A stretch of 64,000 nucleotides of DNA from Bacteroidia bacterium (GCA_019695265.1 JAIBAJ010000005.1:5052-69051), one strand, 5' to 3'; positions 323 to 62,813 are shown, numbered from the stretch's first letter. The notes: generated by a model from the letters alone, not told the origin. Numbers and translations: made by a program.

Positions 323-871
323 TTATAGGATGCTAATTTTCCTAATTCCTCCAATCTTACCGATAATAGCCGAACCCAAAAAGACATCTTGAGGTGAAAA
401 AATTTTATGACAAACCAAGGGGTAAAATCTAACGATATTATGAATCTCCAATTTGAAACCGGATTGAATTTTTCCGCCCACCGATTCAAGAACCAAAAAA
501 TGGCCATTTTTCAAATTTTGCAAGAGTAGGGACTTGGATGAAGGGAACTCAAGGATGAATTTTTGACCTTCTTTAAGGTCTTCCAAGTCAAGGAATGAGA
601 TTTCATCAGGACTATTGTTCGGCCCTTGCTCCTGGTAACAAAACTCATCCCATGACGGGTAACCCAAAAGCCGAGAAAGCTGATCAAGCGTGTACAGATG
701 TGGTCTGGCAGAAGGTGAACTAAAGCCAAAAAGGCGTTTAAGAGTGCTTGAACTAATATTACAATTATAATTCTCCCTTAAATCTTTTGAGAGAAAATCA
801 CAATCTTTAGGATACCGCAAAGGGTACCCAACTCGGGATTCAATAAGTTTTTTAAGTTTTTCAATAATCAT
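323..871 (-). CDS. Small conserved protein with an HTH-like motif, function unknown. It is a paralog of 14682-15263 and is read divergently from the signalling operon.
   Basis: 182-aa ORF. About 60-65% identical to the 193-aa ORF at 14682-15263, sharing RYPKDCE..SKDLRE.YNCNISSSTLKRLFGFS.PSA.PHLYTLD..S..LGY.SWD.FC. The NISSSTLKRLFG stretch resembles an AraC-type HTH recognition helix. No signal peptide. Confidence 0.55.
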   Translation of the reverse strand: MIIEKLKKLIESRVGYPLRYPKDCDFLSKDLRENYNCNISSSTLKRLFGFSSPSARPHLYTLDQLSRLLGYPSWDEFCYQEQGPNNSPDEISFLDLEDLKEGQKFILEFPSSKSLLLQNLKNGHFLVLESVGGKIQSGFKLEIHNIVRFYPLVCHKIFSPQDVFLGSAIIGKIGGIRKISIL

Positions 872-1127
872 GGCAGGAGGCGAACATATTATAAAAAAAA
901 AATTGAATGCTAACAGCTAAAAAAAGAATTTTTTGAATTTTTTGCCTGTGCCTACAAGACTGATTTTAAACTCTCTTTGCTTAAAAATAATACTCGATAA
1001 AGGTATTACTTTATTTTAAAATTCTTTTTACCGGAAGAAAAACAAAACCGAAAATTGGAAAAACCCTTTACCATTACCATGGTTTAAACAATTTCAAACT
1101 GAAAACAACATAACAACATAATTTTCA

Positions 1128-1745
1128 ATGTATTATGAACAAATGTCGAACATAGAAAATGTTGCCACTCATATCGATGAGCTGCATGCAATTTCGACGA
1201 ATGGTCCGTATTATGATATAATTTCCATATTATATTTAAACCCGAAAGAGCTTCTATTTTCATCAATTAGTTTTGTGGCAGGAGTACTTATTGCCGGCTT
1301 GCTTTTTTTTGTTTTAAACTGGATTTTACAACCCAGTTTAAAAATCCAACGACCATGTGTGGTATTAAAAGAAGGATTATTAGATAAAATAATTGTGCCA
1401 ATTGTAAACAAATCTCTATACTATTCTTTAAAAAATATTAAAATTGAGGGATATATATTATATGAAAATCAAAAATTTGATTTAAAATTAGATAACAATT
1501 TTATTAAATCTATAAAATCATTAAGTACGGATGAATATCAATATATAATAAATGTTGAAGGTATAATTGAATATAAAAACAGGAATAGTGACATATCTAC
1601 ATCACTAAAAGATTATTCATATATAATTAATTCTCCAAACTCAATTTTAAGAATAATAGTATATTGTGAGCATAGTTTAAGTGGTCTTAAACGAATTATT
1701 AAAAAGAATTATCGTAGAATTTTATATAATTATCAGGAAGTTTAA
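1128..1745 (+). CDS. Single-pass membrane protein of unknown function, first gene of the signalling operon (distant paralog of 15402-16142)
   Basis: 205-aa ORF with one hydrophobic helix (LLFSSISFVAGVLIAGLLFFVLNWIL). Its C-terminus IINSPNSILRIIVYCEHSLSGLKRIIKKNYRRILYNYQEV matches LLNSPNTILKIKVIAKHKMSGICLSIEKKYRKIIHNYYEI in the 15402-16142 ORF. Its stop is 2 nt before the kinase start codon. Very AT-rich. Confidence 0.5.
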   Translation: MYYEQMSNIENVATHIDELHAISTNGPYYDIISILYLNPKELLFSSISFVAGVLIAGLLFFVLNWILQPSLKIQRPCVVLKEGLLDKIIVPIVNKSLYYSLKNIKIEGYILYENQKFDLKLDNNFIKSIKSLSTDEYQYIINVEGIIEYKNRNSDISTSLKDYSYIINSPNSILRIIVYCEHSLSGLKRIIKKNYRRILYNYQEV

Positions 1746-1747
1746 TT

Positions 1748-3502
1748 ATGGATTTCCACAAACTATTATTTAGACAATACAAAAAGTATAATTTATCGGA
1801 AAATAACACACCTCCGGATTTTATTTCGGAGGTAAATAAAACCTATAATTCATTTGAAGAAAGAATACGGTTATTAGAAAATATTCTGGAGGTTAATCAA
1901 AAGGAGTTACTGAGAACGAACTCAGAATTAAAACGAGTACTGCTTGAACAAGAGCTCGAAATTGACAGGAACATCCATGAAATAAGAACTTCAAGGAATA
2001 ACCTGGAAGAATCAAAAACTCAATTGCTAGCTGTTTTTTCAGCCATTGATTCCGTTGTAATATCAACCAATGAAAGTGGAATTATAAAATTCGTAAGTCC
2101 TTCAATTAAAAAGCAGTTCGGACTGGAAATTCATCAAGTTGTAGGCCTAGACATTACTTCATTAGCAAGAAGAATTGGGTTAGCAATTAATCCATTTGAA
2201 ACACTAAAAAATGATCAAAGTCTCGAATTTACTTCAGAAAGTGGTGAAAAGCATTTCCAATTACGCTTAAATACCGATAATCCGGAAAGTAAAAACCTGG
2301 TTTACTCCATCATGGACATTACAAGTGACAAAAACTTACGCTTACAAGTTGAAGGGCAAAAGGAATTCTATGAAAGTATACTGGAGAATATACCGGCTGA
2401 TGTTGCACTATTTACAAAGGACCATCGGTATATTTATTTGAACTCTAAAGCCGTTAAGAATCCCGAATTAAGGCAATTAATAATTGGAAAAACGGATTTT
2501 GAATACTTTCAGGCTACAAATCGCAGCGTTGAGAAAGCCATTGAAAGAGAAGCAATTTTTCAGGAGGCCATACAAAAGAGAAGCTATGTTGAATTTGATG
2601 ACCGACTGGTAGATGCAAATGGGAAACAAAAGACACTAAAACGTCGCTTTACCCCTTTCTTAAAACCGGAATATCAGGAAGATTATGTGATGGGGTTCGG
2701 TATTGACGTTACAGAATTGTATGAGATACAAGCCCATTTGAAGGAAAATGAACAAAAAATAAAAGAACTGAACAACAGTTTGGAACAAAAGGTTATTGAA
2801 AGGACCCGGGAATTGCAGATTGCCAATAAGGAAATGGAATCCTTTTCCTATTCCGTTTCACATGACTTAAAATCACCACTTCGGGCTATTCAGGGGTATG
2901 CCAACATTTTAAATGAAGAATACAAACAATTCATTGATACAGAAGGGCACCGCTTTTTGGAAGAAGTAATAAAAAATGCGGATCGAATGACCCATTTAAT
3001 TGATTCTCTTTTGTCCTTTTCACGATTAGGTAAAAAAGAAGTACATAAGGTAATTTTCAGTTTAGACGAATTGGTAAGTTCAATGGTGGAGGAGGAAAAG
3101 CCATTTCCCAACCCAAATTCAGTTTTACAAATTGAACCCTTAGGAAATGCTTATGCAGACCCGGATTTATTGAGACAGGTATTGACAAATTTGATCAGCA
3201 ATGCATTAAAATATTCATCCAAGAAAGAAAAACCAACAGTCGAAATCAAGAGCATTGCGAATGGCGATGAACTTGAAGTTATTGTAAAAGACAATGGGGC
3301 CGGTTTCAATATGGATTATTACGATAAATTATTCGGTGTATTTCAACGCCTGCACTCCGACAAAGAGTTTCAAGGCACAGGTGTTGGACTGGCACTTACC
3401 CAAAAAATTATTACCAAACACGGAGGAAGAATCTGGGCAACATCCGAGCCCGGAAATGGCGCCGTATTTCATTTTACACTACCTCAAAAACAACAACAAT
3501 GA
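1748..3502 (+). CDS. Soluble sensor histidine kinase with coiled-coil, PAS, HisKA and HATPase_c domains
   Basis: 584 aa with no TM segment. H-box SHDLKSPLRAIQGY, N-box NLISNALKYS, G-boxes DNGAGF and GTGVGLAL. PAS-like segments in the N-terminal half. Overlaps the next gene by 4 nt (ATGA). Confidence 0.85.
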   Translation: MDFHKLLFRQYKKYNLSENNTPPDFISEVNKTYNSFEERIRLLENILEVNQKELLRTNSELKRVLLEQELEIDRNIHEIRTSRNNLEESKTQLLAVFSAIDSVVISTNESGIIKFVSPSIKKQFGLEIHQVVGLDITSLARRIGLAINPFETLKNDQSLEFTSESGEKHFQLRLNTDNPESKNLVYSIMDITSDKNLRLQVEGQKEFYESILENIPADVALFTKDHRYIYLNSKAVKNPELRQLIIGKTDFEYFQATNRSVEKAIEREAIFQEAIQKRSYVEFDDRLVDANGKQKTLKRRFTPFLKPEYQEDYVMGFGIDVTELYEIQAHLKENEQKIKELNNSLEQKVIERTRELQIANKEMESFSYSVSHDLKSPLRAIQGYANILNEEYKQFIDTEGHRFLEEVIKNADRMTHLIDSLLSFSRLGKKEVHKVIFSLDELVSSMVEEEKPFPNPNSVLQIEPLGNAYADPDLLRQVLTNLISNALKYSSKKEKPTVEIKSIANGDELEVIVKDNGAGFNMDYYDKLFGVFQRLHSDKEFQGTGVGLALTQKIITKHGGRIWATSEPGNGAVFHFTLPQKQQQ

Positions 3503-3945
3503 ATCAAATTGAAACCATAGATATTCTGCTAGTAGAAGATAATTTTAATGATGCAGAACTGGCACTAAGAGTTTTGAAAAAAAACTTTCCATCCAGAAAA
3601 TTAGTTCACCTAGAAGATGGTGAACAAGTGCTTGATTATTTTAATCTTAGACAGAATCAACCAAATACCTACCACCATTCCATACTACCGAAAGTAATTT
3701 TACTTGATTTAAAGATGCCCAAAATCGATGGACTTCAGGTTTTGGAAATCCTTAAAAAAGATAATGAATTAAAGAAAATTCCAATTGTTGTATTAACCTC
3801 ATCCAAAGAAGACCCGGACCTCAAACGCTGCTATGAACTTGGTGTTAACTCCTATATTGTTAAACCCGTTGAATTTAAAGAATTTATGCAAATTATTTCT
3901 CAAATAGGCGTGTATTGGGTAAACTATAACCAAAAGCCAAATTAA
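3499..3945 (+). CDS. Stand-alone CheY-like response regulator receiver domain
   Basis: 148 aa. ILLVEDNFNDAE ... ILLDLKMPKIDGL ... IVVLTSSKE ... YIVKP is a typical REC fold signature with no output domain. Confidence 0.85.
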   Translation: MNQIETIDILLVEDNFNDAELALRVLKKNFPSRKLVHLEDGEQVLDYFNLRQNQPNTYHHSILPKVILLDLKMPKIDGLQVLEILKKDNELKKIPIVVLTSSKEDPDLKRCYELGVNSYIVKPVEFKEFMQIISQIGVYWVNYNQKPN

Positions 3946-3950
3946 GAATT

Positions 3951-5933
3951 ATGAAGGTATTGCATATTGAAGATAACGAATCTGATTCCTTTTTCATAAA
4001 ACGTTTGCTCGCTGTACACTTTAGTGATTTGGATTACAAACTTGTTGAAGACCTGGATGAATTTAAAACAAGTCTTAATGATTTCCAACCCGATGTTGTT
4101 ATTTCCGATCATAAATTAAAGGGATTTACCTCCAAAGAAGTTTATGTTGCTTTTAAAGACAGCTGGCAAAAATGTCCATTTATACTGGTTACCAATGCTA
4201 TATCGGAGGAGTTTGCGGTAGAAACCTTGCGTAACGGAGTAGACGATTATATTCTAAAGGACCGTTTGGAACGTTTACCAAAATCCATTGAAAATCTATT
4301 AGCAAAATACCAATGGGTTGCAGAAAAAGATGAATATATCAAGCAAATTATTGAAAGTGAAATTCGGTACAAGGATTTACTTCATTCTACTTCGGAGTTA
4401 ATTCACAGTGCCGATGAAAATGGCAATATTCTATTTGTGAACGAAAGTTGGAAACGAGTATTAGGCTATACATTAAGGGAGGTGTTAGCAAAGAACATCT
4501 TTGACTTTCTTGAAAACAACTCGAAAATTTCTTGCCTTAGCAAATTTCAGCGCATCATGAAGGGGGAAAAGGTCGAAAATATGAGATTAAAGATGATTTC
4601 CAAGGATGGATCGGTGAAAATTTTGGAAGGAATGGGAGTGCCACGCTTGCTTGGAAATAACGTTATTGGATCCCATGCATTTTTTAAAGACGTCACCGAA
4701 AAAGAAAATATTCAGTCTGAACTGGAAAAAAGTGAAAAGCGCTATGCCCTGGCCATTGATGCAACTGCCGATGGAATAATTGATTTCAATATCAAGGAAA
4801 ATAGTTTTTACTTGTCGGTTCATAGTTTTGACATATTAAATCAAAACAACAGACAAATCTCACTTTCGAATTTGTCAGAAATTATTCCGCCTTCCTTTTA
4901 CCAATGGATTAAAGGTCTTTTGGAATCCGATAATAATTTACAAAAAAAATTAAGTTTCGATCAGGATATACAATTAAACATAAATTCGGACAAATGGATT
5001 AACATCAAAGCCGGATTTAACCCTTCAGACTTTCGAATAAATGGCTCTATAAGGGACATTACGGACAAAAAAATTCAGGAAATCGAAATTCAAAACCTGA
5101 ATAAAGAACTTGAACAAAAGGTTGAAATAAGAACCTTGGAATTAAAATCCGCCATTAAGTTATTAACCCATAAAAACAAGGAAATTCAGGATAGTATTGT
5201 TTATGCAAAACGAATCCACAATGCCTTATTAACCATTCCGGTAGACTTTAGTGAACTATTTCCTAATTCATTTATAATCAACCAGCCTAAAGAGCTTATT
5301 GGTGGGGATTTTGCTTGGTATCAACAATTAGATGATTGTAAATTTGTTGCTGCAGTAGATTGCACCGGACATGGTGTTCCCGGTGCCTTATTGTCGGTTG
5401 TGGCCACCATTCTTTTGGATGAAGCTGTAATTAAACAAAAAATTATCAACCCGTCCGAGATTCTGGGCTTTGTTAACAATCGACTAAACATCCTATTCAG
5501 AAACTCAGCCGAAGTTATTTCGGATGGTATGGATATTGCCCTCTGTACTATCTGTGAAAAGGAAAATCTGGTGCTATTTTCTGGTGCTCAAAGACCCATT
5601 TATCAGGAATCGAACGGGGTTATTACCAAGCGATTAGGAGATAAAATTTCGTTGGGCCAAACTGAAACACAAAAATCATTTGCAGTGCAGGAAATAAAGT
5701 ATTTGCCCGGTGATATGTTGTATTTGTTTTCAGATGGAATAACCAGTCAGTTTGGTGGTCCGGAAGGCAAAAAAATCAGGAGGCAACAGTTTATGGAAGA
5801 GCTGGAAAGTATTTCAGGCAAACCAAACAAGCAAGAATTAATAACGGATTTTTTTGAGAAATGGAAAGGCGATATGGAACAAACTGATGATGTGCTCATT
5901 CTGGGTATAAAACTTAACAAAGCGGTAATATGA
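3951..5933 (+). CDS. Response-regulator receiver, PAS and PP2C-type (SpoIIE/RsbU-like) serine phosphatase fusion
   Basis: 660 aa. N-terminal REC (MKVLHIEDNESD ... DVVISDHKL ... FILVTN). Central PAS and coiled-coil region. C-terminal PP2C signature GGDFAW..AAVDCTGHGVPGALLSVV, DGMDIAL, LFSDG and DDVLILGIK. About 65% identical to the 17045-19021 ORF. Confidence 0.85.
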   Translation: MKVLHIEDNESDSFFIKRLLAVHFSDLDYKLVEDLDEFKTSLNDFQPDVVISDHKLKGFTSKEVYVAFKDSWQKCPFILVTNAISEEFAVETLRNGVDDYILKDRLERLPKSIENLLAKYQWVAEKDEYIKQIIESEIRYKDLLHSTSELIHSADENGNILFVNESWKRVLGYTLREVLAKNIFDFLENNSKISCLSKFQRIMKGEKVENMRLKMISKDGSVKILEGMGVPRLLGNNVIGSHAFFKDVTEKENIQSELEKSEKRYALAIDATADGIIDFNIKENSFYLSVHSFDILNQNNRQISLSNLSEIIPPSFYQWIKGLLESDNNLQKKLSFDQDIQLNINSDKWINIKAGFNPSDFRINGSIRDITDKKIQEIEIQNLNKELEQKVEIRTLELKSAIKLLTHKNKEIQDSIVYAKRIHNALLTIPVDFSELFPNSFIINQPKELIGGDFAWYQQLDDCKFVAAVDCTGHGVPGALLSVVATILLDEAVIKQKIINPSEILGFVNNRLNILFRNSAEVISDGMDIALCTICEKENLVLFSGAQRPIYQESNGVITKRLGDKISLGQTETQKSFAVQEIKYLPGDMLYLFSDGITSQFGGPEGKKIRRQQFMEELESISGKPNKQELITDFFEKWKGDMEQTDDVLILGIKLNKAVI

Positions 5934-6537: not shown

Positions 6538-6628
6538 CCAATGATATTTGAAATAGTCCAAAACCTATTTTGAAAATTATCGTAGTAAACGCCTATGCAA
6601 AAGCTGTTTAGGCCAATTATTGCCATGT
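6538..6628 (+). repeat. Repeat S copy 1 (about 90 nt, roughly 75% identical to 45718-45812, same orientation)
   Basis: CCAATGATATTTGAAATAGTCCAAAACCTATTTTGAAAATTATCGTAGTAAACGCCTATGCAAAAGCTGTTTAGGCCAATTATTGCCATG against CCAATGTTATTTGAAAAATATTCCAAGAACTAGTTTGAAAATTACAGTGGTAAATGCCGATGCAATAGCTGTTTGGCAGTTTTGGCATGCAT. Confidence 0.6.
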
Positions 6629-6750
6629 AAAATTGGACAATTAAAGATAAAACAAACATTTTCGCATCTTTACCACATGAACCTTTTAACGCTGCTATTC
6701 CAACTTGATTTATCCCAATCCATTGAGGAAAATTAGGAATACCTGGTGTT

Positions 6751-6925
6751 GCGGAGATTTCAATTGCTGCGAAAGCTATTAGAAAGCACCATGCTAATTA
6801 CCTGCACCGCCACGTATAGCTTGCACCCGGGTTAGGGATTGCAGTGGAAATCCTTTTTGTCGAGGTTACGAGCAAAAAGATTGGAACGGAAAGCCCGACC
6901 CGTTAGGGGAACCCCCAAAAAAAAC
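6751..6925 (+). repeat. Repeat R2 copy 1 (about 175 nt), near-identical inverted copy at 45950-46128
   Basis: The reverse complement of 6751-6925 matches 45950-46128 at about 95% identity (..CTTTCGCAGCAATTGAAATCTCCG at one end, GGGGTTCCCCTAACGGGTCGGGCTTTCCGTTCC at the other). The internal block TTGCACCCGGGTTAGGGATTGC resembles the R1 5' block TTGCACCCCGGGCAACGATTGAGG. Confidence 0.75.
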
Positions 6926-7170
6926 AGGATTAAACCTTATTCGGAAATAAGATAAACAGCCAAACTAGCAGATTTTGAAACTTAAACCAAGAGTATATAA
7001 ACGATATACCTCTACCCTTACTGATTAGTGGCTTTTAGGGTGCATCATGGCACCTGTTCCATTGGTTATGCTACTTGTTCACCTTTATTCCATTTCCAAT
7101 TCATAAATCCCATTCGTTACCCGTTAGAAATAACCGATTGAAACAGGGTTTAAAGTATATTCGCACGGCA

Positions 7171-13279: not shown

Positions 13280-14059
13280 TTAAAGGATTTCTTCTCTTAA
13301 CTTTTTAAAGTAATTCGCAGCTTTCAGCATTCTTGAACCATACCACGAAAACATTTCTCCATCCACTAAAACCACCTTGGATTGCTTAAATCTCTCCTGA
13401 TATTGCCTTACATGCTTAATTCCAAACGGATAAGGTTCAGAGGATAAAAAAATAAAATCCGGCTTCAAATCATGTATCGCTTCTAAACTTAATTCCGGAT
13501 ACCGTCGCAAATGACTCAAACTATTTCTAAATCCGGCCCTTCTCATACAATCGTTGATGTAAGTTTCATTGCCCGCCCCCATCATAGGCTTGTCCCAAAT
13601 TAGATAAACCGAACTATGATTTGTAGTCCCGGGCAATTGCTCCATTGAACGTGCTATCTTGCTTACCAGTTCTCCGGCCTCCCCGGTTTTGCCGGTTAGT
13701 TGTCCAACCTGTTGTATCATTGCCAATCCCGATTCCACCGTGTTAATGTCTGTTACCCAAACCGGAAAAGATTGAGACAATTCCAGTATGTCTTCTTCCT
13801 TATTCTCTTCCTTGTTCGCTAAAATTAAATCAGGATTCAATTGTGCAATTACATCTAATTTGAGCTGTTTAGTGCCTCCAACTAATTTCTTGTTGCTTAG
13901 TAAATGCCGGGGATGAATACAAAATTTCGTGATGCCAACCAATTCCTGCTCCAACCCCAAATCAACCAATAGTTCAGTTTGAGATGGAACTAAACTAACA
14001 ATTCGTTTTGGCGGCTTGCTCAGGTTTATTGTTCGACCCAATTGGTCAGTAAACTCCAT
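13280..14059 (-). CDS. Periplasmic substrate-binding protein of the BtuF/TroA-like (cobalamin or siderophore ABC) class
   Basis: RIVSLVPSQTELLVDLGLEQELVGITKFC is characteristic of BtuF-like helical-backbone binding proteins. No ABC permease or ATPase gene is adjacent. Confidence 0.65.
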   Translation of the reverse strand: MEFTDQLGRTINLSKPPKRIVSLVPSQTELLVDLGLEQELVGITKFCIHPRHLLSNKKLVGGTKQLKLDVIAQLNPDLILANKEENKEEDILELSQSFPVWVTDINTVESGLAMIQQVGQLTGKTGEAGELVSKIARSMEQLPGTTNHSSVYLIWDKPMMGAGNETYINDCMRRAGFRNSLSHLRRYPELSLEAIHDLKPDFIFLSSEPYPFGIKHVRQYQERFKQSKVVLVDGEMFSWYGSRMLKAANYFKKLREEIL

Positions 14060-14681
14060 AAAGCAAAAATAGTCAGTTATTCCATGGAAAGTGCGGATAC
14101 AATGGCTGTTTTAACCAGACTATCAAAATTGGTTAAATAGGGTTTGCTAATACACATTCAATCGATTCATTATAAGCCATTTAAATAATTATTTGAATCA
14201 CATTGGTGCAAGATTTTGAATTAGATTTTCTAGATTTCCTTGCATCCATATTTTTTGAAGATTACTTTGGATTGTTAGTCAGAAATACAGCATCTGCTTC
14301 GTTGCCTGCGGTTCGCATTATTTAAGTATACAGCTTCACCTTGGCGCCTTGCATCTACTGCATTTCTGACTTTTTCAGCAGATCCTAAATAATTATCAAT
14401 CGGATGAGTGATTTTTATTATACCCTAAGCAAGCCCCTAGGCAGAAGCAAAGCGGTATCAATTAATTTTAACCTTAAACAAACAGCTATTCCGGTGAATT
14501 GGTAGGTTAGTTTTACTAAGTTTCTATTCCATTCTCAATCATCCTATCTAAATCTAACAACCAAGTTAATTGCCCAAGCTTCAAACTTCGTTCAGGAAAG
14601 AAATGGACAAAAGATTACCACTGAAATTTTGATAATCAAAATCTCCCCCCCCCCTCAATAAATTTTAAAGAGAAATTGCAA

Positions 14682-15263
14682 TTAAATGCCTTGAGGAACA
14701 AAATCCTCTCTAAGAATATTTATCCTCTTAATCCCTCCCACTTTACCAATAACAGTTGACCCTAGCGGAGTTCCTTCAGGACAGAAAATTTTATGACAAA
14801 CCAAAGGAAAACATTTTACAATGTTTTTAATCTCTAACGTGAATCCTGCTTTAATTTTAGCACTTATAATGGATTCCAAAACCAAAAAAGTACTATTGTT
14901 TAGGTATTCCAAAAGAAGCTTTTTCTCAGGTAAAAATTCAAGGATTAACTTTTGACCTTCCCTTAGTTCATTCAAATTGAGAAAGCAAATTTCATTCGGA
15001 TTGCAACTTCCAACCTCCTGACCTTCTTGGCAAAAGTTATCCCATGAGGTATAACCCAAAACATTAGATAGAAGATCCAAAGTATAAAGATGCGGTTTGG
15101 CTGAGGGAGTGCTAAATCCAAAAAGACGTTTAAGGGTACTGGAACTTATATTACAGTTGTATCCCTCCCTTAAATCCTTGGAAATAGTTTCGCAGTCCTT
15201 TGGATACCGTATGGTGTATCCCAATTTCAGTTCAATGTTTTTTTTAAGCCTTTTGATGTTCAT
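14682..15263 (-). CDS. Small conserved HTH-like protein (paralog of 323-871)
   Basis: 193 aa. Shares the RYPKDCE..SKDLRE.YNCNISSSTLKRLFGFS and LVLES....K..F.LEI.NIV..FPLVCHKIF blocks with the 323-871 ORF. Confidence 0.55.
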   Translation of the reverse strand: MNIKRLKKNIELKLGYTIRYPKDCETISKDLREGYNCNISSSTLKRLFGFSTPSAKPHLYTLDLLSNVLGYTSWDNFCQEGQEVGSCNPNEICFLNLNELREGQKLILEFLPEKKLLLEYLNNSTFLVLESIISAKIKAGFTLEIKNIVKCFPLVCHKIFCPEGTPLGSTVIGKVGGIKRINILREDFVPQGI

Positions 15264-15392
15264 GGTAGAAGGCGATTTTAGTATATTTTTTTGTTGTTTA
15301 TAATTTAACGACCTAAAAGAACTTTATGACCTTTTTGATTTTTTTGATAGATTGATAGAAAAAGAAAATAGAATCTCTTTGTACCAAATCCG

Positions 15393-15399
15393 GGGGGGC
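15393..15399. other. G7 homopolymer tract 3 nt upstream of the start codon at 15402
   Basis: CCGGGGGGGCAAATG. A simple-sequence tract at a translation start is a candidate slipped-strand switch. Confidence 0.3.
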
Positions 15400-15401
15400 A
15401 A

Positions 15402-16142
15402 ATGTGTAATATTTTCAACCAAAATACTCAAATTATCGACCAACTATCATTTTGCCATATTCCACTTGACAGTATTGGTCTTAAATTAAATTTTTTGCAT
15501 GGTCAAAAAGAGTTAGTGTCATTTTTACACTTAGTTCAATCCAACAAAGCTCTCTCCGAGGGTCAAAATCAACAAAAAAATATAATTAAAGAGTTTGTTA
15601 TCAATCACTTAAACTCAATTAGCGACTTTTCATTACTGGACTCCGGGCTTATTTCATCGGAGATCTTACCCTTTCTTTTAGTGGGCTCTCCTCTTTTACT
15701 TTTTCTATTATTATTATTAAAATTTAGACCAAAAATTTTAATTCAAAAACCTTACCTCGTTTTAGGAGAAAGTTCAATTGACCACCTATGCATTTCCATA
15801 GTAAACCTTTCCAAACAGCAAGATTCAATTGGCATAAAAACCGAAGCTGAAATAATCAATGATAATATTACCTATCGCCTAATCCTTGAAGAAGATGGAA
15901 TGGAGATACAATCTATGAGGAAAAGAAAAGTTGGAATTTTAAACATGATTGTCCGAAAAATTGATTTTGCACCAATTGATTTAAGGCCTAAACCCGTTTA
16001 CCTAAAAGACCTATCTCTATTACTAAATTCTCCAAATACCATTTTAAAAATCAAAGTTATAGCAAAACACAAAATGTCAGGTATATGTCTATCAATTGAA
16101 AAAAAATATAGAAAAATAATTCACAATTACTACGAAATATAA
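15402..16142 (+). CDS. Single-pass membrane protein (distant paralog of 1128-1745)
   Basis: 246 aa. TM helix ILPFLLVGSPLLLFLLLLLKF. Conserved C-terminal domain shared with the 1128-1745 ORF. Confidence 0.45.
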   Translation: MCNIFNQNTQIIDQLSFCHIPLDSIGLKLNFLHGQKELVSFLHLVQSNKALSEGQNQQKNIIKEFVINHLNSISDFSLLDSGLISSEILPFLLVGSPLLLFLLLLLKFRPKILIQKPYLVLGESSIDHLCISIVNLSKQQDSIGIKTEAEIINDNITYRLILEEDGMEIQSMRKRKVGILNMIVRKIDFAPIDLRPKPVYLKDLSLLLNSPNTILKIKVIAKHKMSGICLSIEKKYRKIIHNYYEI

Positions 16143-16465
16143 AATACAAATAATTTTAATTATAGTTTAATATTTAATATAAATCATCAAATATAAATCA
16201 ATTAACAAAACAAATTAATAAGAGAATAAATCCATATACCCAAACCTTCATAATAAGCTGTAAAAAATAAATAACCCAATGCCAAGTTAGGCAAAACCAA
16301 CTAAAAATCCTTAACTTCCTATAACCTATGCAAAAACATCATTCTACTTAAATCCCCGTGACCTTAAACCCAGAATAATTCACCAAATAACCTTATAACC
16401 TAGTAATTTCCATTAACATGCTTTTTGCTAAATAATCAGCACCGCTGTTACATAACGCTCTCCAT

Positions 16466-16990
16466 ATGGCTCAAATGATAGAATCGTTATTACACCTTTC
16501 AAAACTAGAAATAGGTAGGCTTAATATAAAATTGGTCGATTTGCATCAGTTGGCACTTCAGGTTTTAGAAGAAAACAAACCTTATCCCAATCCAAATTTG
16601 CATTGCACAATAGATAGTTTGCCACCAATTAATACAGATCCAATCTTACTGCATCATGTTCTATTTAAGCTGATAGAAAACGCAATAAAATTCTCTTCCA
16701 AAAGAGAATATCCAAAAATTAAAATTTCAAGTTTTCTTTCAAGCGCTGAAATACGAATTTCAATCAAAGACAATGGTGTTGGATTTGATATGGCTGAATA
16801 TGATAAACTCTTTGGCACTTTCAAACGACTTCAATCCGGTAACGAATATCAAGGAGATGGCTTAGGACTCGTCTATTGCAAAAATGCCATTTCCAAATTG
16901 GGAGGTCGAATATGGGCTCAATCAATACTAGAAGAAGGTTCTGAATTTTCTTTCACTTTACCATACTCCTGCATACCTTCCAGTAATTAA
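16466..16990 (+). pseudogene. 5'-truncated remnant of the PAS histidine kinase, retaining the HATPase_c domain only
   Basis: The 174-aa ORF aligns (about 45% identity) only to residues ~415-584 of the 1748-3502 kinase (MTHLIDSLLSFSRLGK.. against MAQMIESLLHLSKLEIGR..). The H-box and PAS region are absent. An in-frame stop lies 9 nt upstream, and 320 bp of very AT-rich non-coding DNA replaces the 5' part. Confidence 0.6.
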
Positions 16991-17044
16991 AAATAAATAA
17001 TTCAAACAACACTAAACCAATATAAATTTTTACGTTATCTAAAT

Positions 17045-19021
17045 ATGAGGATTTTACATATCGAAGACGATGCCAGCGACGCCCTTTTCATTCAAAGAAA
17101 ACTCGCAAGTACATATACTCATTTAGAATACCTTCGAGTACAATCATTAGAAGAACTCAAAACTTCAATCCCATCTTTTGAACCAGACGTAATACTATCC
17201 GACCATCAATTAAATGGCTTTACCTCTAAAGAAATTTTTCAAATTTTCAAAGACTCTTGGCACAATTGCCCTTTTATACTAATTACAGATACCGTTTCAG
17301 AAGACTTCGCTGCCGAAGCACTAAGAAATGGGATAGATGACTATATTGTAAAAAATCGTATTGACCGTTTACCAAAAGTTATTGATACTTTACTTCTTAA
17401 AAACCAACTCTTAAAAGAGAGAGATGAATACATCAATCAAATTATTGAAAGCGAAACCAGATACCGCGACTTATTGTATTCAACCACCGAACTAATCCAT
17501 AGCGCTGATTTACAAGGTAACCTGAATTTTGTAAACCAATCATGGAAACGCTTTCTTGGATACTCCAGTTCCGAAGTCATCAACCGAAACATCTTCGAAT
17601 TTATTGCAGATTCTTCCAAAAGATCCTGCGAAATCAAATTCCAACGATTAATGAAAGGCGAAAAAGTGGAAGATATGAAACTAGAAATGATTGCCAAAGA
17701 CGGCCAATTGAGAAAAATGGAAGGATTAGCCGTCCCTCGTTACATTGGGAATTATCTTATTGGATCTCATGCCTTTTTAAAGGATATTACCGAAAAAGAA
17801 GAAATCCAAAGCAAACTTATTGAAAGCGAAAAACGATACGCACTTGCAATTGCTGCAACTTCAGATGGTATCATTGACCTTAATATTAAAAACAAACAAT
17901 TTTACCTTTCAAACCATTGCTTTGAAATACTTGATCTAGCTCCCCAACCCATCTCAATCTCTAACCTTCATTCCATCGTACCTTCCGGGTTCTATCTCTG
18001 GGTGAAAAACCTGGTAAAAAACAATGGAAAAAAATTGAAAAATTCACTTTTCGATCAAGATATTGAAATTTTCTCCAACCCATCAAAATGGGTAAATATT
18101 AAAGCAATCTTCAACCATAAAGATTGCCGAATTAATGGCTCAATCCGGAATATTACCGAAAAAAAAATCCAAGAAATAAAAATTCAAAACTTTAATAAAA
18201 ATCTGGAAATTCGGGTAGATCTTAAAACTAAAGAGCTTAAAAAGGCTATATCTTTACTAACCAGCCGCAATAAAGAAATACAAGACAGTATTCATTACGC
18301 AAAAAGAATTCACGATGCCTTAACTTCCCATCCCAGAAACTTGGATGAAATATTTCCAAATTCCTTTATTCTTAACCTCCCCAAAGATGTAATTGGCGGC
18401 GACTTTGCTTGGTTTCAACAGGTGGGCAATACCAAGTTTATTGCAGCAGCCGATTGCACAGGCCATGGTGTTCCTGGTGCCTTGCTTTCGGTGGTTGCAA
18501 CCATTCTTCTTGATGAGGCAGTTCTTAAACAAGAAATAAACAATCCTTCCAAAATCCTTGAATTCGTAAATAAACGCCTTTTAAACCTACTTAATAACAC
18601 TGAAGATCTATTGTCGGATGGCCTTGACATCGCCCTTTGTGCAATCAATCCCAATTGCAGGAAAATCCTATTCTCAGGAGCAAATCGACCCATTTATTTC
18701 AAAACCAACAACCAAATTACAGTCCTTCATGGCGATAAAATATCGCTTGGCGAACCCGAAAAAAACCATGTATTTTCACTTCAAACTATTTCTTACATGC
18801 CTAATGACCAGCTCTTTATGCATTCAGATGGAATTACCAGTCAATTTGGAGGAAAATTCGGAAAAAAATTAAAACGACAACACTTACTGAACGAATTAGA
18901 ATTTGATATGCCGATGCCTCAGAAATACCGTTTTATTCGTGAACTATTTGATGAATGGAAAGGTGACTTGGAACAAACTGACGATGTGTTGGTAATCGGT
19001 ATCACTTTGCCTTCAACTTAG
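17045..19021 (+). CDS. REC, PAS and PP2C (SpoIIE-type) phosphatase response regulator (paralog of 3951-5933)
   Basis: 658 aa. REC N-terminus (MRILHIEDDASD ... DVILSDHQL). PP2C motifs GGDFAWFQQ..AAADCTGHGVPGALLSVV, DGLDIALC, MHSDG and DDVLVIGI. Confidence 0.85.
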   Translation: MRILHIEDDASDALFIQRKLASTYTHLEYLRVQSLEELKTSIPSFEPDVILSDHQLNGFTSKEIFQIFKDSWHNCPFILITDTVSEDFAAEALRNGIDDYIVKNRIDRLPKVIDTLLLKNQLLKERDEYINQIIESETRYRDLLYSTTELIHSADLQGNLNFVNQSWKRFLGYSSSEVINRNIFEFIADSSKRSCEIKFQRLMKGEKVEDMKLEMIAKDGQLRKMEGLAVPRYIGNYLIGSHAFLKDITEKEEIQSKLIESEKRYALAIAATSDGIIDLNIKNKQFYLSNHCFEILDLAPQPISISNLHSIVPSGFYLWVKNLVKNNGKKLKNSLFDQDIEIFSNPSKWVNIKAIFNHKDCRINGSIRNITEKKIQEIKIQNFNKNLEIRVDLKTKELKKAISLLTSRNKEIQDSIHYAKRIHDALTSHPRNLDEIFPNSFILNLPKDVIGGDFAWFQQVGNTKFIAAADCTGHGVPGALLSVVATILLDEAVLKQEINNPSKILEFVNKRLLNLLNNTEDLLSDGLDIALCAINPNCRKILFSGANRPIYFKTNNQITVLHGDKISLGEPEKNHVFSLQTISYMPNDQLFMHSDGITSQFGGKFGKKLKRQHLLNELEFDMPMPQKYRFIRELFDEWKGDLEQTDDVLVIGITLPST

Positions 19022-19027
19022 TTTTTT

Positions 19028-19170
19028 AAGTATTTGGCGGGCCCATTCGCACAACAATTTCACTTCGTCCGATAGTTCGTAAGGCTCATGGCCGGGCTAT
19101 CGCCGCTACTCCTCACCCGAAAGTATTCGGGTTGCGGGGTAGCATGCTCTATCCCTGCCCGAACGGAACC
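19028..19170 (-). repeat. Repeat R1 copy (minus orientation)
   Basis: The reverse complement reads ..CGGGCAGGGATAGAGCATGCTACC..GGCGATAGCC..GAATGGGCCCGCCAAATACTTAAAAAAC. It shares the 5' block, the GGCGATAGCC block and the 3' GGGCCCGCCAAATAC block with the other R1 copies. Begins 7 nt after the PP2C gene stop. Confidence 0.6.
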
Positions 19171-19560
19171 TCTACCTTTGGGTATATTGTTCTTGGCATT
19201 TATCTTAAAAAGGTCTGTTTCAAATCTCCTGCCAATACTTTGTTCTCAACCTCTATTTACATTAATGATGTTCGGGTATAAAGTTAGAAATGCAAAATGA
19301 TAAACTAACATGGCCAATCCCCTTTCTATATACTCCAAGTCAGGTTCAATGTAAATACCGCATTGCTAACTAACAAACCTGTTATACCAATCAATTGGGC
19401 TTAAAACGGGAATATTAAACCCTGCCAATCCCCTTGATTTCATTGGGTTTACCCAAACCGGGAACCTAATTTTAATACAATCCAAAAAAAAAATTATTCC
19501 ATCCGTTATGGAATCCGTCCAACTAGGCATCTAAATACTGAAACCAAAACCTTCTTTATC

Positions 19561-22500
19561 ATGCAACGATTTGGAAAATCCTTCTTGCCCATTGGCCTAT
19601 TCGTTTTGGCAGTGGCACTTATTCTGGCTTTAAATGCCAATTCTATCTTTAATCCAACTTCCATTCGACACCTGTTTCCGGCAGTTGAAAATGAATTGAT
19701 TCGAACCTTGAGGGAAAAACTCAATCGTTTGAATCAAACTCATCCGGAAGACCGCCTTTACCTGCAAACAGATAAAACATTTTATAGTCCGGGCGAAACC
19801 ATCTGGTTCTCCGCCTTCCTTCGAAAAGGATCCGACTTTAGTGCTTCCGATAAAAGTGAAGTGATCCACCTTGAATTTTTAAACCCTGCAGGTGCAGTAG
19901 CAAAAAAACTGGATCTTATTGCTATCAACGGCCAAAGCCGTGGCGATTTGCTTATTGAAGAAGAACTACCCGGCGGCATCTATACCCTCAAAGCTTTTTC
20001 CAATTGGATGAAAAACGACTCCTCTTTTTTCGAAAAGAAAATTACGGTTCAGGAATTGGTTCTTCCTCGACTCAAAATGAAACTAGATTTCGAACGAGAA
20101 GGATTTGCCCCCGGCGAAGAAGTAGTTGCTAAACTTATCCTTGAATCCAACGAAAATAAAGCCCTGTCTAATCACTCCTTCCGGTTTAGCGTTTCGCTCG
20201 GTGGCAAAGAATTCATGAACAACCTATCCTCTACCGGAAACAATGGGGAAATGTTCATTCGCTTTCATTTGCCCGCTAAACTAAAAACCGGAGATGGTTT
20301 GCTCCTAGTCTCCCTCGACTACGAAGGCCAATCAGAAAGCATTAGCCGAAGCATACCTATTGTCCTGAACCAAGTAAAACTGGAACTATTTCCAGAAGGT
20401 GGTGACCTTATCCAAAACCTCGAAAGCCGTGTGGCCTTCCGGGCCAGAAACCATCGAGGAAAACCCACCGATATTAAAGGTAGGGTGGTTGACCAAAACG
20501 GTAAGGAAATCACCTCTTTCACCAGTTTTGCCAAAGGTTTGGGACATTTTAACCTTATTCCTGAACCCGGTAGAACTTATTTTGCCCAAATTACCTCGCC
20601 GGCATGCGATGACCGGGTAGAATTGCCTTCCGCTTTGTCTCAAGGTTTTGTTTTAAAAACCGGGGAGGCCCAAAACCTGGATCTTCCTATCCAAATCCTA
20701 AGTACCATTCCAACCAAAGCATCCCTCGTGGCTACCGTAAGAGGAAAAATATATTGGGCAACTGAAGTAGCTCTTGCCTCCGGAAACAACCAGGTTATCA
20801 TGCCCCTTGATCAATTCCCGATGGGGGTTGCTCAAATAACCTTGTTCGATGCAAATGGAATTGAACGTTGTGAACGCCTGGCCTTTGTTAACCGCGACAA
20901 ACAGCTTCGCCTGCATATACAAACCGATAAGGAAAAATACCTCCCCCGTGAAAAAGTGAAAATGACCATCTCCACTACCGACGCTAGTGGACTACCGGTT
21001 GCCTCCCAACTGGGTATATCGGTGGTAAACGACCAATTGCTCGCTTTCGCCGACGACAAACAACAGCATTTGCTGGCATCACTCTGCCTTCAATATGATA
21101 TTAAAGAACCCATTGAAGAGCCTAATTTCTTCTTCGATACCAAAGAATCAAAAAGCCTTCGTGCCTTGGATTACCTCCTTCTAACCAGCGGTTGGAGGCG
21201 ATTCTCGTGGAAAGAAATTAGAACTGAAACAGTTCCTCAATTTGGGTTTGAAGGGGAAAAAGCAGAAATCTATGGTAAAATCTTGGATGCTTATACCGGT
21301 AAACCCATTCAGGCCGCCTTTGTAAAACTGGTAGGAACTAAAACCACTACCCGAAGCGATGAAAATGGAACCTTCCGAATCAAAAAAGCCGATATCTCCT
21401 CCTTTAACCAGCTTGAAATACGAATGACTGATTACCAGGTGCTTACTGCAAACCTTACCCATCTGAACGACCAGGGTGTTTTGTACCTGAACTCAAATCG
21501 CCCTGTTGCTTTAATTAAAATGGTTGAAGCATGTGCTAATGTACCTATGGCTTTGGTAAAGCAGGATGAAGTAGATGCAGGTTTTGCAGATTTTAACTGG
21601 GATGTGGTAGAGGAAAAGCAATTAGCCAAAGTTCCAAATAAAGAAAGACAACCCGCCAGGGCTAAACCAGCACCTAAAAGAGCACAAGCCGATTCAATAA
21701 TTTTCCGAAAAGGGGATGCTCTGGCCAAAAATAAAGCTAAAAAGGAATTTCAAAACGAGGATATGAAGGACATGGGAAAATGGTTCTTACCGCAAGAGGA
21801 GCCACCTATTCCTCAACAACCGGAATCCCACTTTGTCAGGGCCCGCCAATTCCCGGTTTCCAAACCCGAACCGCTTCAACCATCCGATGTAAGAACCGAT
21901 TTCCGTTCCACCCTTTTCTTCGATGGTATGCTTGAAACCGACCGAAGCGGCAAAAAAACAATCGAATTCTATACCTCCGATGAAATCACTTCCTTCCGGA
22001 TTACCGCCGAAGGTATCGGCGAAAACGGATTGCCCGGACGAACCGAACAAACCTTATTCACCCAGCTACCTCTCAGCATTTCAGCCAAAATCCCCACTAG
22101 CTGCATCCTGGGCGATGTGGTAGCTATCCCGGTTACCATTAAAAACAATTCCAACACCGGCTTGTCAGGCAAACTCAGCATTTCTGCACCCAAAGGCTTT
22201 AACATAAAGCATGAACCGGCCCTGACGCAAACCCTTGACGCAAACCAAGCCAAAACAATTTACCTTAACTACGAAGTAAGCGGCACCGCACAAACCGATA
22301 GCATCCGAATCTCCTTCCACTCTGCCTCCCATAGCGACCAACTTTGCCAAGCCATAAAAACCGAAGCCAAAGGTTTCCCAATGAGCTTAGCTTTCTCCGG
22401 CAAACAACTGGAAGCTGAACACGAGTTCGCCCTCTCCAACATCGTTTCGGGTAGCTTGCAAGTAAACCTCACCGCCTTCCCTTCCGTTGTTTCTGACCTG

Positions 22501-23961
22501 ATGAAAGGGGTGGAAAGCATCCTCAACGAACCTTCCGGATGCTTCGAACAAACCAGTATGAGCAGCTACCCCAATGCCATGGTGCTCGATTACCTGAAAA
22601 CCATTGATTCCCACGACGAAAAAATCCTTCAACGTGCAAACCAATTGCTCGACCAAGGCTATAAACGCCTCATCAGCTTCGAAACCAAACAAAAAGGCTA
22701 CGAATGGTTTGGCTCCTCTCCCGGCCACGAAGCCCTTACCGCTTACGGACTTATGCAATTTAACGACATGAAAAATGTGTATGCCTCGGTCGATAACAGC
22801 ATGGTTGACCGTACTGCAAATTGGCTCCTGGCTAAACGCAACGGTAAAGGTGGTTTTATGCGCAATGCCCAGGCACTCGATCAATTTGGCGCCGCAGACC
22901 AGGATATTACCGACGCCTACATCGTGTACGCCCTGTCCGAAGCAGGCTTCGCCAACCAACTAAAACTCGAATACCAAAAAAATGTAGAACATGCCATCAC
23001 CTCCAAAGACCCTTACCTCATGGGTATGATGACCATGGCTGCCGTACAATCCAACGACCGTACCAATGCCGATAAACTCGCTAAATTGCTTGTTAACTCC
23101 CAGGAAAAAGACGGTAGCTGGAATGCAAAAAAACACAGCATCACCCGTAGCGGCGGATTAGGCCTGCGCATCGAAACTACTTCCCTAGCAATCATGGCAC
23201 TTCTCGCCTACGACCAAGGCTTCAACGGCGAAATAAACAAAGCCGTGGAGTTTCTTATCAATAACCGAAATGCCTACGGTGGTTACGGAAGCAGCCAGGC
23301 AACCATACTTTCTCTAAAAGCGCTTACCCAATACGCCAAATTCAATAAAAAAGCCGGCGAAGACGGTACCATCGAACTCTTTGCCGACGGCCGCAAAATC
23401 GCCGAACAAGCCTATACCAAAAATACCAAAGATCCTATCCAATTCAAAAATCTGGAAAAGGAAATTAAACAAGGTAAAACCAAGTTTAAAATCAAGTACA
23501 AAGGTGTAAAAAATGCCTTGCCATATTCTCTCGCAATTACCTACCACTCCTCGCTTCCGGCCAGTAGCGACCAATGTGTTATCGGTATCGAAACATCCCT
23601 CGATGCCAAACAAATTTCCATGGGGCAAACCTGTCGTATGCACATCGAGTTGAGTAATCTTACCAACCAGGGTCAACCCAGTACCATGGCTATTATTGGT
23701 CTGCCAGCCGGTTTGTCGGCTCAACCCTGGCAATTAAAAGAGCTGATGGAAAAGCAAAGCTTCGACTACTATGAAATAAAAGGAAATAAGCTGTTTTTAT
23801 ACTATCGCCAAATGAAACCTAACGAGTCAAAATCCTTTAACCTAGACCTAAAAACCGAATTTCCCGGCACATTTTTGGCCCCGGCTTCCTCGGCGTATTT
23901 GTACTACACACCCGAGTTCAAATGCTGGAAAGCCCTAACTCCCATCACCATCATTCAATAG
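19561..23961 (+). CDS. Bacterial alpha-2-macroglobulin family protein (large, N-terminally anchored)
   Basis: 1466 aa. N-terminal signal or anchor (LPIGLFVLAVALILALNA). SGCFEQTSMSSYPNAMVLDYL resembles the thioester region CxEQ (E. coli YfhM has CLEQ). MG-domain-like repeats. GC is about 48%, higher than the flanks. Confidence 0.8.
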   Translation: MQRFGKSFLPIGLFVLAVALILALNANSIFNPTSIRHLFPAVENELIRTLREKLNRLNQTHPEDRLYLQTDKTFYSPGETIWFSAFLRKGSDFSASDKSEVIHLEFLNPAGAVAKKLDLIAINGQSRGDLLIEEELPGGIYTLKAFSNWMKNDSSFFEKKITVQELVLPRLKMKLDFEREGFAPGEEVVAKLILESNENKALSNHSFRFSVSLGGKEFMNNLSSTGNNGEMFIRFHLPAKLKTGDGLLLVSLDYEGQSESISRSIPIVLNQVKLELFPEGGDLIQNLESRVAFRARNHRGKPTDIKGRVVDQNGKEITSFTSFAKGLGHFNLIPEPGRTYFAQITSPACDDRVELPSALSQGFVLKTGEAQNLDLPIQILSTIPTKASLVATVRGKIYWATEVALASGNNQVIMPLDQFPMGVAQITLFDANGIERCERLAFVNRDKQLRLHIQTDKEKYLPREKVKMTISTTDASGLPVASQLGISVVNDQLLAFADDKQQHLLASLCLQYDIKEPIEEPNFFFDTKESKSLRALDYLLLTSGWRRFSWKEIRTETVPQFGFEGEKAEIYGKILDAYTGKPIQAAFVKLVGTKTTTRSDENGTFRIKKADISSFNQLEIRMTDYQVLTANLTHLNDQGVLYLNSNRPVALIKMVEACANVPMALVKQDEVDAGFADFNWDVVEEKQLAKVPNKERQPARAKPAPKRAQADSIIFRKGDALAKNKAKKEFQNEDMKDMGKWFLPQEEPPIPQQPESHFVRARQFPVSKPEPLQPSDVRTDFRSTLFFDGMLETDRSGKKTIEFYTSDEITSFRITAEGIGENGLPGRTEQTLFTQLPLSISAKIPTSCILGDVVAIPVTIKNNSNTGLSGKLSISAPKGFNIKHEPALTQTLDANQAKTIYLNYEVSGTAQTDSIRISFHSASHSDQLCQAIKTEAKGFPMSLAFSGKQLEAEHEFALSNIVSGSLQVNLTAFPSVVSDLMKGVESILNEPSGCFEQTSMSSYPNAMVLDYLKTIDSHDEKILQRANQLLDQGYKRLISFETKQKGYEWFGSSPGHEALTAYGLMQFNDMKNVYASVDNSMVDRTANWLLAKRNGKGGFMRNAQALDQFGAADQDITDAYIVYALSEAGFANQLKLEYQKNVEHAITSKDPYLMGMMTMAAVQSNDRTNADKLAKLLVNSQEKDGSWNAKKHSITRSGGLGLRIETTSLAIMALLAYDQGFNGEINKAVEFLINNRNAYGGYGSSQATILSLKALTQYAKFNKKAGEDGTIELFADGRKIAEQAYTKNTKDPIQFKNLEKEIKQGKTKFKIKYKGVKNALPYSLAITYHSSLPASSDQCVIGIETSLDAKQISMGQTCRMHIELSNLTNQGQPSTMAIIGLPAGLSAQPWQLKELMEKQSFDYYEIKGNKLFLYYRQMKPNESKSFNLDLKTEFPGTFLAPASSAYLYYTPEFKCWKALTPITIIQ

Positions 23962-45717: not shown

Positions 45718-45812
45718 CCAATGTTATTTGAAAAATATTCCAAGAACTAGTTTGAAAATTACAGTGGTAAATGCCGATGCAATAGCTGTTTGGCAGTTTT
45801 GGCATGCATCAT
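45718..45812 (+). repeat. Repeat S copy 2
   Basis: See 6538-6628. Same orientation, about 75% identity. Confidence 0.6.
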
Positions 45813-45949
45813 TGGCCTATTGCAGATTGGCAATCGGTATTAAATCCAAATTCAGCACAATCAGGTGGGTAATTAAGCCTTAAGTCTATTTTTTTCAAAA
45901 CCCACCGGATCCGATGTTTACATTCAAATTATGGCAGGTTCAAGTTGGT

Positions 45950-46128
45950 GCTTTTTTGGGGGGTTCCCCTAACGGGTCGGGCTTTCCGTTCCAATCTTTT
46001 TGCTCGTGCCTCGACAAAAAGGATTTCCACTGCAATCCCTAACCCGGGTGCAAGCTATACGTGGTGGTGCAGGTAATTAGCATGGTGCTTTCTAATAGCT
46101 TTCGCAGCAATTGAAATCTCCGATTGGC
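45950..46128 (-). repeat. Repeat R2 copy 2 (inverted relative to 6751-6925)
   Basis: Near-identical reverse complement of 6751-6925. Confidence 0.75.
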
Positions 46129-62809: not shown

Positions 62810-62813
62810 TCCC

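Follow-up and report, generated by a model that had tools for sequence, protein, structure and literature searches.

A 64,000-nucleotide stretch of a Bacteroidia metagenome-assembled genome (MAG; locus tags K1X82_), hereafter the window, contains two related signalling modules, module A at 323-5933 and module B at 14682-19021. Module B, which an initial annotation had described as a second, decaying copy of module A, is the subject of this analysis. Its first gene, on the minus strand, encodes a small protein of 193 amino acids (14682-15263). Everything that follows lies on the plus strand: a 246-aa single-pass membrane protein (mem, 15402-16142); an AT-rich, non-coding spacer of 323 bp (16143-16465), where the coding sequence for the sensor and DHp regions of a histidine kinase would be expected; a 174-aa open reading frame (ORF) with an HATPase_c domain and no H-box (16466-16990; 168 aa in a sister strain), which we term the CA-only ORF after the catalytic (CA) domain that it retains; and a 658-aa phosphatase of the SpoIIE family with receiver (REC)-PAS-coiled coil-PP2C architecture (17045-19021).

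Module A serves as the complete reference copy. It comprises a small protein (323-871, minus strand) and, on the plus strand, a membrane protein (1128-1745), a soluble 584-aa PAS-PAS-HisKA-HATPase_c kinase (kinase A, 1748-3502), a free single-domain receiver (3499-3945) and a REC-PAS-SpoIIE (PP2C) phosphatase (3951-5933), the last three assigned by Pfam. The initial annotation placed the module B ORFs correctly, and BLASTP bears out their paralogy to 323-871, 1128-1745 and 3951-5933. Identity had been put at about 65% for both the small protein and the phosphatase; this figure holds for the former (120/185 residues, 65%, E 1e-84), and the only correction needed is to the latter, at 60% (396/655 residues, E 0). 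Conservation of the membrane protein is much lower, as noted earlier, with 33% identity over 146 aa (E 2e-17) spanning the transmembrane helix and the C-terminal domain. The ORF at 16466-16990 aligns with residues 414-579 of kinase A (46% identity, E 8e-47) and is the only part of the module B kinase left; by tblastn, homology to kinase A starts at 16445, corresponding to residue 407. The genes between the two modules are housekeeping in nature (PagL, HAD, LptC, PanK-III, AdoHcy hydrolase and a periplasmic binding protein), so the duplication is dispersed rather than tandem.

Searches for the missing parts of module B were uniformly negative. No second free receiver gene was detected in the window by tblastn, and a relaxed six-frame search of 14000-19600 recovered neither missing part when queried with three free receivers and three full-length kinases (kinase A and its counterparts from two related loci, L007 and L008, whose sequences are termed L7 and L8). 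A kinase N-terminus encoded in another frame, a possibility that the initial annotation had itself raised, was therefore looked for over this interval without result. The best stray matches to kinase residues 1-406 had E values above 0.1 and fell inside the PAS region of the module B PP2C gene, and elsewhere in the window kinase N-terminal sequence occurs only in copy A. The spacer, earlier estimated at 320 bp, matches the kinase N-terminus in none of its frames. Its base composition is strongly skewed (GC of 0.27 in 16001-16500, which covers much of it), and no copies that would mark it as a remnant of an insertion sequence (IS) or miniature inverted-repeat transposable element were found in the window or in any of the related loci. 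An in-frame TAA at 16433-16435 shuts the reading frame 10 codons above the ATG of the CA-only ORF. That the spacer keeps no trace of kinase coding sequence indicates that the deletion is old.

Because the source is a MAG, and AT-rich spacers are prone to assembly trouble, the kinase might in truth be full length, its 5′ part lost by misassembly or overlooked in another frame. The junction is 100% identical in a separate 1.1-kb contig from ENA (L001), and the mem-spacer-CA-PP2C arrangement also appears in a sister strain sampled twice more (L047 and L048), with strain-specific single-nucleotide polymorphisms and indels in the spacer. These independent occurrences argue that the junction is no misassembly, and they combine with the lack of a kinase N-terminus in any frame of 14000-19600, or in the window outside copy A, to make an artefact of assembly or annotation extremely improbable.

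What survives of the kinase is a compact and well-defined unit. Pfam finds HATPase_c alone in the CA-only ORF (PF02518, E 6e-23), with no match to PF13581 (HATPase_c_2), compared with PAS, HisKA and HATPase_c in kinase A. The alignment begins at DHp helix alpha-2, of which the last ~16 residues remain ahead of a complete HATPase_c catalytic domain; the columns of the H-box, which reads SHDLKSPL in kinase A, L7 and L8, are missing, as are a Pfam HisKA domain and any input domain of the kind provided by the PAS domains of kinase A. By contrast with these losses, the N, G1, F and G2 boxes are intact both in module B and in its ortholog on contig L006, described below (NAxKFS, DNGVGF, FxxFxRL and GDGLGL, plus GGRIWA), and module B retains 17 of the 17 invariant columns of a 51-sequence CA alignment. 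In an AlphaFold2 (AF2) model of the protein, pLDDT exceeds 90 across the domain; the ATP lid is floppy, and the N-terminal helix, modelled with low confidence, is the orphan end of DHp alpha-2. In Foldseek comparisons the model resembles WalK and HK853 (TM-scores of 0.79-0.82), and all PDB sequence matches as well as the top 50 Foldseek matches belong to canonical histidine kinases; SpoIIAB, RsbW and RsbT are absent from both sets. The MAG annotation calls the fragment a hypothetical protein. A word-indexed homolog search with the fragment returned only matches of 43% identity or less and missed kinase A itself, and is thus unfit for finding orthologs. As judged from these motifs and the model, the CA-only protein probably retains the ability to bind ATP but is unable to autophosphorylate, and ATP binding appears to be the property that selection has preserved in it.

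Related genomes place these losses in an evolutionary order. Distant relatives of the operon, found at L007 (complete genome GCA_965284645.1), at L008 and on one JGI contig, consist of a PAS-kinase (700-730 aa), a free receiver (148 aa) and a REC-PAS-PP2C phosphatase (655 aa), without small and membrane genes. Module A therefore keeps the ancestral core, which settles a point that the initial annotation had left to comparison with related genomes. Closer to the window, two strain copies of module A (L003 and L004) are 98% identical, and three contigs from sample SRR11524805 carry diverged counterparts of both modules. The first, L002, has an A-type small gene (80% identical); in L002:1-630 the 3′ end of an IS4-like DDE transposase gene precedes this gene in place of the membrane/kinase operon, and the contig ends within the IS. 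The second, L005, has B-type small (56%) and membrane (48%) genes. The third, L006, has a CA ORF 53% identical to that of module B, followed after 78 bp by a PP2C gene 65% identical to that of module B, with no receiver gene between them; we refer to these B-type sequences as S6. The intergenic DNA 3′ of the phosphatase is also similar in L006 and the window. In a neighbour-joining tree of the phosphatases, B and S6 group with 100% bootstrap support and A, B and S6 with 64.5%, and L7, L8 and their relatives form the sister group.

Synonymous sites are saturated between the B and SRR11524805 lineages (proportion of synonymous differences, pS, 0.74-0.85). Since the receiver-less CA-PP2C junction exists in both, the duplication and at least the receiver deletion predate their split. 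Taken together, the gene comparisons show an ancestral operon of PAS-kinase, free receiver and REC-PAS-PP2C phosphatase that gained, in this lineage, a divergent small gene and a single-pass membrane gene before being duplicated, and a copy B that then lost kinase residues 1-406, with the PAS sensors and the phospho-acceptor H-box, together with the free receiver gene. The proposed history, an old segmental duplication and then partial loss, is thus upheld by the outgroup operons, the phosphatase tree and the receiver-less junction of L006. There are hints that the kinase truncation, too, was already present in the common ancestor with SRR11524805. Contig L006 starts 12 nt (4 codons) before the Met that aligns with the module B start, and L005 ends 41 codons before the end of mem; a contig break at the exact breakpoint of module B would be unexpected for a full-length kinase and is explicable by an AT-rich spacer. 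Furthermore, the two CA fragments have diverged symmetrically and fast.

Whether module B is decaying can be addressed through its pattern of substitution. All four of its ORFs are intact. Relative to the SRR11524805 orthologs, the proportion of non-synonymous differences (pN) is 0.32 for the CA fragment, 0.21 for PP2C, 0.26 for the small protein and 0.34 for mem, against a saturated pS of 0.74-0.83; this saturation makes dN/dS at such depth unusable, and a strain-level comparison was used in its stead. Among 108 sites invariant in three canonical kinases, 10 are changed only in B and 10 only in S6, 17 carry shared derived changes and 18 differ in both, so module B has drifted no further than its ortholog. 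The decisive comparison is with L047 and L048, which match the window at 98.5-99.3% DNA identity over 10.3 kb and have the same mem-spacer-CA-PP2C layout. As both strains are truncated, the truncation predates their split, and any later substitutions in the CA-only ORF report on selection after the event. Across CA codons 1-168 there are 7 substitutions, all at third positions and none at positions 1 and 2; five are synonymous and two are the conservative changes D50E and E127D (pS 0.046, pN 0.005, pN/pS 0.11; binomial P 0.007 for at least 5 of 7 synonymous; Fisher P 4e-4 for position 3 versus positions 1 and 2). The spacer, with 14 differences including 3 indel nucleotides (4.3%), is the most variable stretch between the strains, changes at a rate equal to that of CA third positions and evolves like neutral DNA. 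For the same pair of strains, the intact kinase A has accumulated 20 synonymous and 19 non-synonymous changes. Neutral-like sites in this region, namely CA third positions and the spacer, differ between the strains by ~4-5%, versus ~0.3-0.4% overall for mem and PP2C on either side; 16143-16990 is a local patch of raised divergence, possibly a recombination mosaic.

These data bear directly on whether the CA-only ORF is functionless deletion debris, a pseudogene whose gene-like appearance reflects nothing more than a recent deletion or a frame that is open by chance. Such a fate would be in keeping with the loss of the H-box and all sensor domains, with a CA domain whose rate of evolution, set against that of PP2C, is about double that seen in canonical operons, with a stop polymorphism in the C-terminal tail, and with a start at the conserved Met of DHp alpha-2, to which gene callers also turn in plainly broken kinases. 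Indeed, databases hold many CA-only ORFs of 171-173 aa with a start at this same Met. Of those inspected (P0014, P0061 and P0068), P0014 and P0068 lie beside a separate upstream sensor ORF, in one case with a gap, and have the look of frameshifted or interrupted genes. Since broken kinases give the same ORF, its length and start are no evidence of function; the signal of selection after truncation is. In module B, unlike in those broken kinases, the upstream half is wholly gone and the remnant has been under purifying selection since it was truncated. A recent event is at odds with a spacer devoid of any kinase coding trace. Both strains are truncated, and the core of the ORF has since changed at third positions only, next to a spacer that differs between them by 4.3% and indels. 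The orthologous CA ORF is, moreover, open in a synonymously saturated lineage with symmetric divergence, and every ATP-binding residue is intact. We consider the pseudogene explanation unlikely.

Overall, the codon-level comparisons show purifying selection on all four surviving module B ORFs, including the CA-only ORF measured after its truncation. We assign a probability of roughly 60% to the reading that module B, an old paralog of A, was remodelled by two deletions and is now maintained by selection. The low pN at depth, the strain-level third-position pattern, the intact motifs and the canonical CA model all argue against decay, and on this point the initial annotation does not stand: the ORFs are open, pN/pS is 0.11 after truncation beside a spacer that diverges by 4.3% with indels, the boxes are complete and the CA fold is canonical. 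Several observations temper this view. The strain test consists of only 7 substitutions, and its strains amount in effect to a single pair. The module B CA fragment departs from the family at four of 18 near-invariant positions, and sites invariant among A, L7 and L8 are changed in B and/or S6 at 51% in the CA fragment versus 33% in PP2C, so constraint on the fragment is relaxed by comparison with canonical kinases. The C-terminal tail varies between strains (C169* in L047 and L048), which shows the last 6 residues of the CA-only ORF to be dispensable. Contig L006 covers the SRR11524805 kinase only from 4 codons before the shared Met, with the N-terminus beyond the contig, and gene damage, too, would by default yield a CA-only ORF beginning at this Met. 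Finally, neither a HisKA-only partner nor a PP2C substrate was found among the scanned ORFs of the 64-kb window, a scan in which 60209-63874 is unscanned.

The adjacent phosphatase retains all the features of a regulated enzyme. Pfam identifies Response_reg (PF00072, E 1.8e-9), PAS and SpoIIE (PF07228, E 1.5e-15) domains in 17045-19021. The acidic pair, phospho-acceptor Asp, Thr and Lys of the receiver are kept (IEDD, SDH with D53, ITD and IVK) and have equivalents in S6, A, L7 and L8, and the PP2C metal-binding motifs GGDF, DCTGHGVPGAL, SDGITSQFGG and TDDVL are invariant in the five sequences. The helical linker ahead of the PP2C domain is likewise retained, and a partial NCBIfam match relates this domain to SiaA-type partner-switching phosphatases. 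A contig scan with the B phosphatase as the single query returned no relative. From these residues we infer that the enzyme is still a PPM phosphatase under phosphorylation and PAS control, belonging to a class that PMC12143880 reviews.

Module B lacks an H-box, yet its receiver still carries the Asp, Thr and Lys, so the phosphoryl group must be donated by a kinase acting in trans. Kinase A is the obvious candidate, and its control of the B phosphatase in trans, as suggested by the initial annotation, is plausible. The single readable feature on this point does not favour simple sharing of kinase A: helix alpha-1 of the receiver, classically the surface that sets specificity, has the sequence IQRKLxSTY in B and S6 but IKRxLxxxF in A, L7 and L8, a conserved B-specific signature of the sort expected once paralogs diverge (compare PMC9208753). 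Other genes of related function or position in the window include a third SpoIIE-family phosphatase (54854-56719, plus strand), in which an N-terminal TPR array replaces REC-PAS and the PP2C domain is 36-38% identical to those of A and B; a 347-aa LytS-type His_kinase (PF06580; 42817-43860, plus strand) after an ABC/MacB efflux operon; and, directly downstream of module B, a gene for a 1466-aa bacterial alpha-2-macroglobulin (19561-23961, plus strand).

Of the two accessory proteins, the small one belongs to no known family. The AF2 model of the module B small protein (pLDDT 82) predicts a five-helix N-domain and a beta-barrel C-domain; the protein has no Pfam, NCBIfam or PDB sequence match, and its model has no significant PDB fold match. 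Homologs with 28-39% identity occur in about 30 other Bacteroidota loci (L011-L043), none beside kinase, PP2C or signalling genes. These distant homologs were accordingly dropped as evidence for the module. Their neighbourhoods are variable and mobile-element-like; many include an upstream divergent ORF with a hydrophobic, signal-peptide-like N-terminal start, and some of these ORFs share a sequence resembling YYD...K...EY...G.KNG.YK.YSEYGG near the N-terminus. Membrane proteins A and B each possess one hydrophobic helix, at about residues 82-110 in B, followed by a ~135-aa domain. Their family is almost unique: a profile search of 1.84 billion representative proteins gave only 12 weak matches beyond the two window proteins. 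On this distribution, the small and membrane genes are best described as lineage-specific additions to the signalling operon. Between the window and L003, codon differences in the module A membrane protein number 9 non-synonymous to only 3 synonymous, beside 19 and 20 in kinase A, which suggests that the accessory and sensor proteins on the A side are under relaxed or diversifying selection.

The divergent intergenic region between the small and mem genes contains a tandem 9-10-bp motif, TGAnnTTTTTGAnTTTTTTG, at 15327-15346 (plus strand), with a module A counterpart at 925-944. Its core, GAnTTTTTT, is present in 2-3 copies and is conserved in A, B, L002 and L005, and these two sites are the only matches in the window against 0.01 expected. 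Copy number at the module A site is polymorphic: GAATTTTTT occurs twice in the window but three times in strain L003. The motif is a candidate shared promoter or operator, and its occurrence in both modules suggests that A and B may be co-regulated.

In the mechanism that we propose, mem, the CA-only ORF and the PP2C gene would be co-transcribed from the promoter region held in common with the small-protein gene. No terminator was found from mem to the PP2C gene, and neither a sigma-70 nor a Bacteroidetes -7 promoter (TAnnTTTG, plus strand) from mem to the CA-only ORF; with no terminator or -7 motif separating mem from the CA-only ORF, a single transcript is probable. Switching of the B phosphatase would still depend on its PAS domain and on whether its receiver Asp is phosphorylated. 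The phosphoryl group would be supplied by a full-length kinase encoded elsewhere, since module B has no phospho-acceptor histidine of its own; kinase A is again the obvious candidate for this role, even with a diverged receiver specificity helix. The CA-only protein itself might act in trans on the DHp of another protein in the manner of a split kinase, either donating kinase activity or modulating that kinase, a proposal that we prefer among those for this protein but advance as tentative.

The gene order also recalls partner switching, as a small HATPase_c-only gene followed by a SpoIIE-family PP2C gene mimics rsbT-rsbU. If such a system had been co-opted here, the CA domain would behave as an RsbT- or RsbW-like GHKL protein that binds and activates the adjacent SpoIIE-type phosphatase or phosphorylates its Ser/Thr substrate, implying a kinase/phosphatase pair derived from a histidine kinase. 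The CA-PP2C pair has been kept in two lineages with the free receiver removed, its ATP-binding residues are under selection, and the likeness of the PP2C domain to SiaA-type phosphatases, from a partial NCBIfam match, fits as well. The domain is nonetheless of the HisKA type, matching PF02518 only and not PF13581, and its PDB sequence and top 50 fold matches are all canonical histidine kinases. The phosphatase begins with REC-PAS rather than an RsbU-type N-domain, and a Pfam scan of window ORFs that took in all free-standing ones of 70-150 aa (again with 60209-63874 unscanned) revealed neither a STAS-domain substrate nor an anti-sigma partner. Partner switching in this strict form is very unlikely. 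It is quite unlikely, too, that the CA domain freed by the deletion was recruited more generally, whether as an ATP-dependent partner of the adjacent phosphatase (RsbT/RsbW-like activator or Ser/Thr kinase) or as a trans modulator of kinase A. If it was, it would constitute a natural partner-switching-like kinase/phosphatase pair arising from a two-component operon.

One further repeat in the window is separate from the two modules. A 175-bp segment occurs as two 97%-identical inverted copies 39 kb apart (6752-6926, plus strand, and 45949-46122, minus strand), both of which contain a Flavo-1 RNA motif (Rfam RF01705, 61.4 bits). A further stretch of ~110 bp near these copies is 77% similar between 6538-6648 and 45718-45827.

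Duplicated two-component systems usually keep both partners and become insulated, or decay. Maintenance of module B as a remodelled paralog would be a different outcome, in which the sensing and phosphotransfer half of a kinase is lost and the ATP-binding half stays under purifying selection beside an intact response-regulator phosphatase. Should the CA-only protein prove active, it would be a natural catalytic domain in trans; such split or "orphan CA" designs are known chiefly from CheA-type kinases and in-vitro work on EnvZ. Modules A and B would then also offer a paralogous pair for probing cross-regulation. If it is inactive, the locus would be an ordinary case of duplication and partial loss. 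Annotation pipelines call such ORFs "hypothetical protein" or fragments, and a strain-level codon-position test provides a cheap means of separating maintained remnants from debris.

Among known systems, the closest in layout are operons of response-regulator PP2C phosphatases. REC- or PAS-regulated PPM/SpoIIE phosphatases include RsbU, RsbP and relatives of RssB, and RsbT activates RsbU by binding to its N-terminal domain and linker (PMC12143880). Module A, L007 and L008 all follow the order histidine kinase, receiver, REC-PAS-coiled coil-PP2C, and the B phosphatase has the same domain order; module B differs from these operons in having neither a cognate full-length kinase nor a free receiver, and no substrate, sigma-factor or STAS partner lies near it among the scanned ORFs. 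Split histidine kinases provide the second comparison. CheA3/CheA4 of Rhodobacter sphaeroides and Hik36/Hik43 of Synechocystis are natural examples, and separate EnvZ domains complement one another in vitro (PMC3591291, PMC7656254). As in these systems, the catalytic domain of the CA-only protein resides on a polypeptide without a phospho-acceptor His, and any kinase activity would need a His in trans. In the known cases the His-bearing partner has been identified and the complex shown, whereas no HisKA-only partner is present among the scanned window ORFs, and the split in module B arose via deletion in a paralog rather than gene fission. A survey of split kinases tallied HisKA proteins without an HATPase domain (PMC3591291), of which the CA-only ORF is the reciprocal. 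The third comparison is with duplicated two-component pathways, which diverge in specificity (PMC9208753). Textbook duplications keep a kinase in both paralogs; the module B kinase lost its phosphotransfer domain, so kinase-receiver co-evolution cannot be read from this pair. Like those duplicated pathways, the B receiver has gained an alpha-1 signature of its own, and it is conserved in two B-type lineages.

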